NCBI GenBank assembly: GCA_003056165.1
Contig: LSNR01000002.1
Span: 2,726 to 66,725, forward strand
Direction of reading: 5' to 3'
Source: Parcubacteria group bacterium M6-OD1-3
GTDB lineage: Bacteria > Patescibacteriota > Minisyncoccia > Moranbacterales > UBA9337
Length of the DNA: 64,000 bases
Shown here: positions 23,546-25,645 of the stretch, in pieces
Position numbering within the stretch: position 1 is the first letter of the stretch
Layout of the letters: each line of letters starts with the position of its first letter
Notes under the pieces: generated by a model
The model's database searches: none
What the model was told of the DNA's origin: nothing
What the model saw: only the letters and a program-made list of their open reading frames with translations
Made by a program: the position numbers and the translations under genes

Positions 23546-25645
23546 AAGGAGGTGATCCATCCACAGCTTCCGCTACGGATGCCTTGTTACGACTTCGTCC
23601 CTATCACCAGCCCCACCGTTGTTCCTGCTATGACACAAGACCTTCGGGTGTTGCCGGCTCTCTTGACGTGACGGGCGGTGAGTACAAGATCCGGGAACGT
23701 ATTCACCGGGACATGGCTGATTCCCGATTACTAGTGATTCCGGCTTCATGGAGTCGAGTTGCAGACTCCAATCCGAACTGAGACCAACTTTTTGGGATTA
23801 GCTCCACCTCGCGGTTTCGCAACCCTCTGTATTGGCCATTGTAGCACGTGTGTAGCCCAGGGCGTCAAAGGGCCATGCTGATCTGACGTCATCCCCTCCT
23901 TCCTCCCAGACTTTAATGCGCTTCGCTTTAATTTTGAATTATGAATTTTTAATTTCAATTGAATTTTTTAAATGAATTAATTTTTAATTCCGAAATATTA
24001 ACTTTTAAGTTTTAAGCTTTACTTCAAAAAATTATGTCATTAAAACATTAGTTCATTCAATCAAAATTTAAAATTGGAAATTCAGAATTGTACACGAAGT
24101 GTACTAAAGTCTGGGCAGTCTCGCGTGACATATATAACACACGACAGGGGTTGCGCTCGTTACCCCACTTAAGGGAACACCTTACGGCACGAGCTGACGA
24201 CGACCATGCAGCGCCTGCTTAGCGTTCTCGAAGACGCTTCTATCTCTAGAAGCCACAGCTAAGTTTCAAGCCCTGGTGAGGTGCCTCGCTTAATATCGAA
24301 TTAAACCACATGCTCCACCACTTGTGCGGATCCCCGTCTATTCCTTTGAGTTTTAAGCTTGCGCTCGTACTTCCCAGGCGGCATATTTAACGCGTTAGCT
24401 ACGACACTAGGAGGGTCGATACTCCTAACATCTAATATGCATCGTTTACGGCGTGGACTACGGGGGTATCTAATCCCCTTCGCTCCCCACGCTTTCGCAT
24501 CTCAGCGTCAGAAAAGTGCCAATTGAATGCCTTCGCCTTTGGTGTTCCTCATGATATCAACGCATTTCACTACTACACCATGAATTCCATCAATCTCTCA
24601 CTTTCTCTAGATATACCGTTTCAAATGCAGTTTCCGAGTTGGGCTCGGAGATTTAACATCTGACTAGTATATCCGCCTACATGCGCTTTACGCCCAATAA
24701 ATCCGGATAACGCTTGGGGTCTCTGTATTACCGCTACTGCTGGCACAGAGTTAGTAACCCCTTATTCAACTGATACCGTCAATTTCGTACCTTTTTAAAT
24801 TCAATTTATTAAATTCAAAATTATTCAGATAATTAGTTTTGCGGACGAGTGGTAATAATATACTCATACTCGTCCTTGTTTTTTAATTTTCATTATATAA
24901 TAGTTATATTAAAAGAATTAAAGTAATACAATTTTATTATATCTTTAATATCATCTATCTCCAAAGGACACGTCACTTTGAACCTAATAGAATTCATATG
25001 ATAATTTATATCCTCCATCTGCACACCTTCAATTTCTTCGATTTGCGAGACTAAATTTTCAATGTCCACCATATTGCTATTTTCGTCTGCTGGCATTATC
25101 CAATATGTTTTTTCTTCTCCCATTGTTACCTCCCTTCTCTCTTGTCTTCAAGGAAACATCGACTTTTCATACACAAAAACAAAACCAATTATCCGAACAC
25201 AATTTCAAATTAAATTCAAAAAGGTACGAACTTCTTCTCAGTTAAAAGCAGTTTACGACCCTAGGGCCTTCATCCTGCACGCGGCGTCGCTCCATCAGGC
25301 TTTCGCCCATTGTGGAATATTCTCGACTGCAGCCTCCCGTAGGAGTTTGGACAGTGTCTCAGTTCCAATGTTGGGGATCACGCTCTCACGCCCCCTACCC
25401 GTCATAGCCTTGGTGAGCAATTACCTCACCAACAAGCTGATAGGACGCAGGCCACTCCTTAAGCGATAAATCTTTACTCCGTAGAGCACATCGTGTATTA
25501 TTCCGGATTTCTCCGGGTTATTCACGACTTAAGGGTATGTTCCTACGCGTTACTAACCCGTCTGCCGAGGGTCTAAACCCTCTCGACTTGCATGCCTTAT
25601 CCACGCCGCCAGCGTTCATCCTGAGCCAGGATCAAACTCTCAATA
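23546..25645 (-). rRNA. rrs: 16S rRNA gene, about 2.1 kb, with two large insertions (about 23912-24108 and 24792-25222)
   Basis: 5' end 'agagtttgatcctggctcag' (RC at 25621-25640), '530 loop' gtgccagcagtagcggtaatac, 3' end 'ggatcacctcctttct'; no 23S/5S in window. Confidence 0.9.
24893..25123 (-). CDS. 76-aa acidic ORF inside the 16S h17 insertion, same strand as the rRNA
   Basis: Strong SD 'gagagaagggaggtaacaATG' read directly; no LAGLIDADG or other motif recognised. Confidence 0.4.
   Translation of the reverse strand: MGEEKTYWIMPADENSNMVDIENLVSQIEEIEGVQMEDINYHMNSIRFKVTCPLEIDDIKDIIKLYYFNSFNITII

Follow-up and report, generated by a model that had tools for sequence, protein, structure and literature searches.

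An insertion in helix h40 of a Patescibacteria 16S rRNA gene and its sequence kinship with a dispersed palindromic repeat

Background

Intervening sequences (IVSs) of ribosomal RNA have been known since 1990, and their origin and the role of the four-helix-bundle open reading frame (ORF) associated with them are still unexplained. Another group of small bacterial elements, comprising the Correia, ERIC/IRU, REP and Rickettsia palindromic elements, consists of multi-copy inverted repeats of ~100 nt which lie in co-transcribed spacers and form hairpins at the RNA level; Rickettsia palindromic elements also land inside RNA genes, and the Correia elements of Neisseria are cleaved by RNase III and duplicate TA at their target. 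Here we describe an insertion in the loop of helix h40 of the 16S rRNA gene of Parcubacteria group bacterium M6-OD1-3. It lies in a stretch of 64,000 nt (contig LSNR01000002.1, positions 2,726 to 66,725; "the window" hereafter, meaning this stretch at its full length) with a G+C content of ~31%, the proteins and related contigs of which place the organism in Patescibacteria (candidate phyla radiation, CPR). Judged by sequence, the arms of this insertion form one repeat family with the mini-elements of the ATP synthase operon in the same window and with the repeats that terminate a four-helix-bundle gene cassette. We suggest that the insertion is likely to be a gene-less, IVS-type member of a palindromic AT-rich repeat family dispersed across Patescibacteria. 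The family probably links rRNA intervening sequences to a dispersed repeat, and this repeat is probably mobile.

The family bears no sequence relation to the Correia, ERIC, REP or Rickettsia elements and further differs from them in that no target-site duplication was recognised. To our knowledge, neither a cognate transposase nor a RAYT is known for it, and we know of no counterpart in those families for its heptad-array arms or for its form bearing a PF05635 gene. Miniature inverted-repeat transposable elements (MITEs) and their autonomous parents offer a parallel: here too, two size classes, one short and non-coding, the other with a single ORF, share the same terminal inverted repeats, and a decayed intermediate is present. 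Unlike in MITEs, the ORF codes for a four-helix-bundle protein, for which neither transposase nor nuclease activity is known, and no target-site duplication was defined.

The IVS of Coxiella burnetii, located in 23S rRNA helix 45, has terminal inverted repeats and an S23p ORF in the loop and is excised by RNase III; tandem GACAGAT heptameric repeats, variable in number between strains, lie beside the ORF (PMC4990558). Excision by RNase III has been described for the IVSs of Salmonella, Leptospira, and Coxiella (PMC4990558), the Leptospira 23S IVS being attributed there to Ralph and McClelland 1993 (as cited in PMC4990558). The same source quotes an old idea that IVSs are mobile elements whose ORF serves mobility. 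With such S23p/PF05635 IVSs the present locus has in common an insertion into a peripheral rRNA helix at its apical loop, termini that are complementary and form a long stem, a sense-oriented four-helix-bundle ORF in the loop of sister copies, a sporadic distribution, and heptameric repeats by the ORF (GACAGAT in Coxiella, NNAAATT here), the last being a resemblance and not a demonstrated homology. In other CPR bacteria, the family also occurs at 23S helices 25 and 45. It differs in that the window copy sits in 16S h40 and is ORF-less, most family members are found in operon spacers and not in rRNA, the arms are much longer heptad arrays, and RNase III excision is put forward here by analogy.

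Insertions in CPR rRNA genes were catalogued by Tsurumaki et al. 2024 (PMC11270868) and are also treated by Brown et al. 2015, as cited in PMC11270868. The catalogue records PF05635 ORFs in 18 16S and 4 23S insertions, and, according to its introduction, insertions in CPR rRNA are taken out of the transcripts. Hundreds of short insertions listed there are uncharacterised, those without an ORF or intron being called 'probably IVS' (PMC11270868). This ORF-less, non-intron class counts 139 insertions in 16S and 469 in 23S. The h40 insertion is like these in its host organisms, its size (<250 nt), and the lack of a group I/II intron signature and of an ORF. However, no shared repeat, hairpin, palindrome or copy outside rRNA is mentioned in that paper ('hairpin' and 'palindrom' have zero occurrences), whereas the present insertion belongs to a sequence family whose copies are scattered over the whole genome and found in different species.

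Results and discussion

Arms of the h40 insertion match repeats in the ATP synthase operon

The 16S rRNA gene of the window is 2103 nt long against a 1533-position model (cmscan), because it holds two insertions, one of 438 nt in h17 and one of ~200 nt in h40. In the latter, the apical loop of the helix is replaced by 199 nt, with the flanking stem CCCAGA/UCUGGG retained. The ATP synthase operon (~32301-40915) lies on the same strand. The window holds four family copies, namely the h40 insertion and those at 36493-36961, 38469-38571, and 32725-32829. The features are as follows.

23545-25647, minus strand: 16S rRNA gene (Rfam RF00177, 1340 bits)
23911-24109, minus strand: h40 insertion, 199 nt (a gap of 200 nt in cmscan, model position ~1157)
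24038-24090, plus strand: strong arm, TTCAATCAAAATTTAAAATTGGAAATTCAGAATT as read on the plus strand; 5' arm of the hairpin in rRNA sense
23930-23967, minus strand: degenerate partner arm, TTCAATTGAAATTAAAAATTCATAATTCAAAATT as read on the minus strand; 3' arm in rRNA sense; repeat family D2
24090-24104, minus strand: G+C-containing basal segment GTACACGAAGTGTAC, from sequence and fold
23917-23925: basal counterpart GCGCTTCGC, pairing with the GTACACGAAGTGTAC segment as the base of the insertion stem
36493-36961, minus strand: gene-bearing cassette between atpA and atpG, with arms at 36493-36543 and 36913-36961
36546-36905, minus strand: four-helix-bundle ORF of 119 aa (PF05635, 23S_rRNA_IVP, E 3.4e-17; TIGR02436, E 3.8e-22)
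38469-38571, minus strand: gene-less hairpin filling the atpH-atpA spacer, arms at 25.7 and 22.7 bits; palindrome I3
32725-32829, minus strand: decayed cassette just upstream of atpC, arm at 32728-32778 with 31.5 bits; family D10

The initial annotation had claimed that the 16S insertion carries the motif of the ATP-operon mini-elements. Its h40 string could be placed at 24051-24089, the reference string at 36930-36959, and the further copies at 32728-32778, 36493-36543, 38469-38520, and 38532-38571, and the identity of the motif was borne out by profile searches as well as by sensitive blastn. When oriented alike, the copies align without gaps along TTCAATCAAAATT and the NNAAATT heptads that follow it, with additional similarity on the inner side, and independent repeat finding recovered the same family (repeats D2, D10, D14, I1, I2, I10, I15, and I25).

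A hidden Markov model (HMM) trained solely on the five ATP-operon arms found positions 24044-24087 at 25.3 bits (E 7.8e-7), its own training copies scoring 24.9-32.4 bits, the next unrelated match in the window 5.3 bits, and the best match in 100 dinucleotide shuffles (6.4 Mb) 14.2 bits. For a second HMM, 120 arms from other genomes were used and all window sequence was left out; it placed 24038-24090 second among its matches in the window at 33.1 bits (E 2.8e-9), whereas no match in 100 shuffled windows exceeded 12.8 bits. In other parts of the real window, profile scores stayed at ≤6.7 bits. This strong arm carries the exact 12-nt core. Its partner at 23930-23967, the second inverted arm within the family spacing (0-110 nt), is weak by HMM (9.2 bits, E 0.08) and significant by blastn. 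With the cassette (36480-36970) as a query against the window, sensitive blastn aligned both the strong arm (24039-24082, 84% over 44 nt, E 6e-8; 24025-24089, 77% over 65 nt, E 1.5e-6) and the partner (23937-23987, 78% over 51 nt, E 1.4e-5; 23927-23966, 77.5% over 40 nt, E 3.5e-4).

Given these HMM, shuffle, and blastn results, the similarity far exceeds what is expected of AT-rich low-complexity sequence. Chance likeness of this sort could be suspected in a window of such low G+C content, and the quoted 14-mer, with two mismatches allowed, is indeed not enriched (7 matches against 5.0 expected from shuffles); the count of this motif was therefore discarded as evidence, the signal requiring the full arm. 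Yet the scores of 25-33 bits, set against ≤14.2 bits in the shuffled sequence and the low scores in the rest of the window, rule this explanation out, and the probability we leave to it is negligible. The objection raised in the initial annotation itself, that the match might be no better than AT-rich low-complexity sequence would give, was put to the same comparison and did not hold.

Both the minimum free energy and the centroid structure of the h40 insertion are a single long imperfect hairpin (RNAfold, dG -62.7 kcal/mol, z -7.3), and none of 200 shuffles was equally stable. The base of the insertion stem, where the GTACACGAAGTGTAC and GCGCTTCGC segments pair, is a candidate RNase III region. 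No self-splicing intron was detected: between 23400 and 25800, no Rfam family besides SSU rRNA reached the gathering score, and in the whole-window scan two tRNAs were the sole further families, with no group I or group II intron family among them. Carriage by phage was dropped as an explanation, as the insertion had no match among 50,697 phage records; the four-helix-bundle protein had two weak matches only (31-46% identity) in these records.

The 438-nt h17 insertion (24785-25223) has long complementary AT-rich termini (GTACCTTTTTGAATTTAATTTGAAATTG ... CAATTTATTAAATTCAAAATT...AAAAAGGTAC in rRNA sense) and an ORF of 76 aa (24893-25123, minus strand) with a strong GGGAGG ribosome-binding site ahead. 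Its ORF is without a Pfam or NCBIfam match and the arm profile found nothing in this insertion, which looks like a second, ORF-bearing IVS of a different kind.

The repeat is widespread in Patescibacteria, mostly as gene-less hairpins

A family member consists of an inverted pair of ~55-nt arms with NNAAATT heptads around a TTCAATCAAAAT core, the arm profile reading TTCAATCAAAATT(NNAAATT)n plus an inner ATT-rich extension. It comes in two forms, a gene-less hairpin with 0-110 nt between the arms and a cassette with one PF05635/TIGR02436 ORF (~350-400 nt). An exact scan of species-representative genomes for the 24-base core pattern TTCAATCAAAATTNRAAATTNNAAATT, the counts of which are lower bounds, gave at least 117 loci from at least 61 species-level assemblies, nearly all of them Patescibacteria; the labels among the matches listed include Falkowbacteria, Moraniibacteriota, Magasanikiibacteriota, Paceibacterota, Portnoybacteria, Staskawiczbacteria, and Yanofskybacteria. 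Several metagenome-assembled genomes (MAGs) have other taxon labels, which looks like placeholder taxonomy. By a rough estimate, fewer than one chance occurrence of a 24-base AT-rich pattern is expected in the AT-rich part of the collection. Literature searches returned no description of a dispersed palindromic repeat in Patescibacteria, and the family appears to be undescribed.

Printed in register, the copies are mostly hairpins of ~90-120 nt. On the 117 listed loci, the arm profile found 218 arms and 73 inverted pairs, the inner distance of which is bimodal, as 65 pairs fall within 0-110 nt and seven within 353-655 nt, with a single pair at 173 nt; the larger size class holds the PF05635 ORF. 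Gene-less hairpins are thus the majority form (65 of the 73 pairs) and outnumber gene-bearing ones ~9:1. The arms of the h40 insertion are separated by an inner distance of 71 nt, which places this copy in the gene-less class.

Copies lie mostly in spacers between co-directional genes: 32 are co-oriented with both neighbours and 11 opposite to them, none lies between convergent genes, and a single one lies between divergent genes. The exact-core arm is promoter-distal in 32 cases versus 11 and ends a median of ~17 nt ahead of the next start codon. This bias is what might be seen if the heptad array were a cis-acting signal, that is, a protein-binding or promoter-like element for the downstream operon gene, with the rRNA copies incidental; conservation of the AAATT of the heptads, without matching arm-to-arm pairing of their variable bases (see below), speaks for the same reading. 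However, copies are found in five rRNA helices where no gene lies downstream, and the arms are inverted pairs which bracket an ORF on both sides. On a reading of the consensus, moreover, the heptads match sigma-70 hexamers weakly: a promoter of the form TTCAAA-N17-CAAAAT agrees at 4/6 positions per hexamer and would be inapplicable inside rRNA. We retain the cis-acting signal as a minor rival only, and a very unlikely one.

Small G+C-containing hairpins were seen in the company of the repeat. Those of the type CCTGCC-TGTC-GGCAGG are nested in or lie beside AT-rich hairpins (locus L132, 3449-3658; window, 32878-32900; locus L097), and GCGAAGC-like mini-hairpins occur at the bases of rRNA insertions (window, 23917-23925; loci L066, L070, and L087). 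These hairpins may be a separate small repeat.

The four-helix-bundle gene appears to travel between arms, and its absence from h40

The two arms of the window cassette (37.3 and 28.1 bits) show 96% complementarity over 27 nt (I25) and in the predicted RNA fold pair around the ORF; the gene-less atpH-atpA hairpin also folds stably (dG -29.6 kcal/mol, z -4.9). The window ORF has ~8000 close relatives across Patescibacteria, with 69-89% identity among the 120 best listed. We inspected the context of eight homologues (71-82% identity), each in a different operon: RtcB/Tmk; atpA/atpG; yidC/jag; epimerase/polysaccharide synthase; IS200 gene/unannotated DNA; L25/transglycosylase; prenyltransferase/reductase; and epimerase/ABC transporter. 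All eight were flanked by heptad arms and co-oriented with their neighbours. The flanking arms ranged from a single weak one at 9.9-18 bits (loci L135, L126, and L125) to ~40 bits on both sides (L123, where the arms come within 2-5 nt of the start and stop codons). The presence of arms around eight of eight homologues in different operons indicates that the gene travels as a hairpin-bracketed cassette, and upholds the link between repeat and four-helix-bundle gene drawn in the initial annotation.

At locus L136 (2344-2903), a complete gene-less hairpin (arms 2344-2398 and 2444-2491) stands directly upstream of a four-helix-bundle ORF, and a third arm (2852-2903) follows the ORF, so that tandem or nested arrangements exist in the family. 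At L135 (Nealsonbacteria CP092821.1), an IS200/IS605-family Y1 transposase (1984-2433; NF033573, 110 bits) is encoded 67 nt upstream of the four-helix-bundle cassette and is bounded by G+C-rich hairpins of its own. Y1 transposases act on DNA hairpins, and this gene might point to a mobilising enzyme; we nevertheless did not adopt it as such, since the case is single, the G+C-rich hairpins at its ends are its own, and its score does not reach the RAYT cut-off.

In the decayed cassette of the window (32725-32829), one arm is fused to the leftover 3' end of the four-helix-bundle gene (84% identical to the intact cassette over 67 nt by blastn, E 5e-15, with a second match of 91% over 34 nt), from which we conclude that decay from the gene-bearing to the gene-less form occurs. 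The h40 insertion could then be a gene-less relic, as the initial annotation had it: a copy which once held a loop ORF, like the Coxiella and Leptospira IVSs, and lost it by internal deletion. Along with the cassette caught in decay, the 18 cases of PF05635 ORFs in CPR 16S insertions (Table S4, PMC11270868) and the 71 nt between the h40 arms, a value from the upper tail of the gene-less distribution, are in favour of such a history. However, neither a PF05635 ORF nor a remnant of one was found in the h40 insertion by tblastn and Smith-Waterman comparison with the cassette (score of the interior against the cassette ORF 23, null 22 +/- 3), and the only similarity of the interior to the cassette, at nucleotide or protein level, is the inner extension of the arm. 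Given the ~9:1 excess of gene-less hairpins, this copy need never have held a gene. We conclude that its status as a relic is unproven, and regard loss of an ORF as unlikely; what stands of the earlier interpretation is membership in the same IVS-type family.

The same arms occupy loops of 23S rRNA in other lineages

Four of the sampled arms, among the at least 117 loci, lie inside 23S rRNA genes. Locus L070 carries ~135 inserted nt in the helix 45 loop, which fold into one hairpin (z -8.2), L087 has insertions in the helix 25 loop and in a domain I hairpin, and L066 has an arm inside a 3' insertion. Helices 25 and 45 of 23S rRNA are classical IVS sites, and the hairpin insertions formed there by the same arms in other CPR bacteria support the assignment to the IVS type already made in the initial annotation. 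Counting 16S h40 and the four 23S sites, copies of the family are known in five different rRNA helices.

The h40 loop itself is empty (GAUAA) in the 16S gene of locus L069, the flanking aligned segments of which are 78.6-83.3% identical to the window. L087 and L069 come from the same genome (MAG118), which has arms in 23S and an empty h40; therefore, the family occupies different rRNA loops in different lineages.

The 23S gene of L066 has two further large insertions, at 1802-2641 (~840 nt) and 2785-3244 (~460 nt), and continues to ~3514 by blastn against another CPR 23S, the cmscan end call having been 1863.

Spread, processing, and age of the h40 insertion

We suggest that the family spreads as DNA, its arms serving as terminal repeats recognised by some factor, and that selection would leave copies only where the transcribed hairpin is harmless. 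They would thus persist in co-directional spacers and in the apical loops of peripheral rRNA helices. The h40 copy would have replaced a GAUAA-type loop, and the insert would be transcribed within pre-16S rRNA, folding into an imperfect hairpin of roughly 90 bp. This hairpin may act as a classical intervening sequence, with RNase III cutting the basal stem and no religation following. On balance we lean, by analogy, towards such excision, in line with the reported absence of CPR rRNA insertions from transcripts (PMC11270868); that the insert is retained as an expansion segment seems possible, though doubtful. In operons, the same stems would bracket or separate cistrons on polycistronic RNA.

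A number of results weigh against this scheme, in which cleavage itself is inferred. Copies of the family are associated with no cognate transposase, the PF05635 protein being the sole cargo. The pairs of filled and empty sites compared (h40, window against L069; atpH-atpA, window against L125) were both strongly diverged, and neither a target-site duplication nor a sharp element boundary was definable in them; at that divergence, target-site duplications were given up as a test. No insertion polymorphism was seen within the species either, where five contigs of the same organism (L001-L005, 98.4-99.9% identical) are collinear with the window with at most one 1-nt gap, and this line of evidence for mobility was likewise set aside. 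At the RNA level, the variable heptad positions of the two arms pair at 57%, against 59 +/- 1.7% with permuted partners, so that compensatory covariation is absent, while the AAATT positions pair at 96%. G.U and A.C mismatches between the arms are equally frequent in copies of either orientation, leaving selection on one transcript strand unsupported. Taken together, the lack of covariation and the balanced mismatches give no positive evidence of a selected RNA helix; the conserved inverted heptad sequence fits terminal repeats bound by a common factor better than a compensated RNA helix. The hairpin would still form in folding models, as 5-bp blocks with small mismatches between them. A search for an ERLEFLGD-like RNase III signature gave no match in the window and related loci, which, at ~0.9 Mb of partial genomes, is uninformative.

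Also on this side is what was found at the h40 site of relatives. A metagenome scan for h40 insertions of 185-215 nt gave two further 16S genes, L132 and L133, 82-88% identical to that of the window, both with AT-rich heptad hairpins of different sequence at the exact same site. In L132, the basal GCACTTCGTGC hairpin is shared, in the same place as the basal segment of the window. The h40 insertion may hence be old and vertically inherited rather than recent. One could go further and regard it as a lineage-specific expansion segment, old, vertical, and kept in the mature 16S rRNA, the arms of which turn over by slippage or gene conversion and not by insertion. The similar-sized insertions of L132 and L133 with their different arms, the basal hairpin common to L132 and the window, and the lack of a target-site duplication would all be consistent with it. 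However, against the consensus drawn from 61 other species the window arm scores 33 bits, the exact 12-nt core included. Arms of the same family are found at four further rRNA sites and in numerous operon spacers, the genome MAG118 carries them in 23S with h40 empty, and removal from transcripts is reported for CPR rRNA insertions (PMC11270868). The distribution of the h40 insertion is sporadic, with none in L069 and different inserts in L132 and L133. We consider an expansion segment of this kind quite unlikely and continue to favour a gene-less member of the dispersed family.

A more far-reaching model may be sketched for the cassette. In Patescibacteria, and only there, the hairpin and the PF05635 gene could together form an element that propagates itself and may be related to classical IVSs, its protein being its own factor and binding the heptad arrays, in DNA or RNA, for mobility, processing, or protection; gene-less hairpins would be non-autonomous derivatives, and ORF-bearing IVSs would be copies that landed in rRNA loops. 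We offer this tentatively and hold it to be improbable as it stands. If true, PF05635 would for the first time have a functional context other than diversity-generating retroelements, and the origin of rRNA IVSs would be explained.

By sequence, one and the same family does three things: it forms insertions in rRNA (16S h40, 23S helices 25/45), fills spacers of essential operons, and brackets a four-helix-bundle gene at all loci inspected. This makes the idea of IVSs as mobile elements directly testable. The arm profile can be used to annotate many of the uncharacterised CPR rRNA insertions, and, in CPR genomes, the repeat may mislead assembly, 16S-based classification, and the prediction of operons.

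Other repeats and inserted ORFs of the window

The ATP synthase operon also contains a GIY-YIG ORF of 94 aa in the atpD-atpC spacer (32955-33239; PF01541, E 6.6e-14), adjoined by an 88-nt palindrome (33254-33341). A decayed copy of this unit lies between atpF and atpH (39003-39149; 90% over 61 nt in direct orientation and 84% over 70 nt in inverted orientation). The ORF and the palindrome are a second selfish cassette in this operon, and GIY-YIG ORFs are also known from CPR rRNA insertions (PMC11270868). Between atpG and atpD, an ORF of 132 aa (34869-35267) matches the C-terminal part of the CYTH domain alone (profile positions 66-156/179, E 4e-5) and is probably a gene fragment lodged in the operon. 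The atpB-atpE spacer (40099-40152) has a perfect 31-nt overlapping AT-only palindrome (TTAATTATAAATTATGAATTATTAAATATTT and its complement; I6), which the arm profile does not match.

Outside the operon, an exact direct repeat of 36 nt occurs at 60900-60935 and 61027-61062, 127 nt apart (D7). Its second copy overlaps the 3' end of a tRNA-Pro gene (61045-61118, minus strand), and the repeat has the look of a tRNA end that was duplicated, for example as the scar of an integration event. A 97-nt direct repeat is present three times, at 13992-14088, 15326-15422, and 61209-61305 (D1; 95% and 73% identity to the reference), and probably marks the conserved terminus of some gene or element that is itself repeated.

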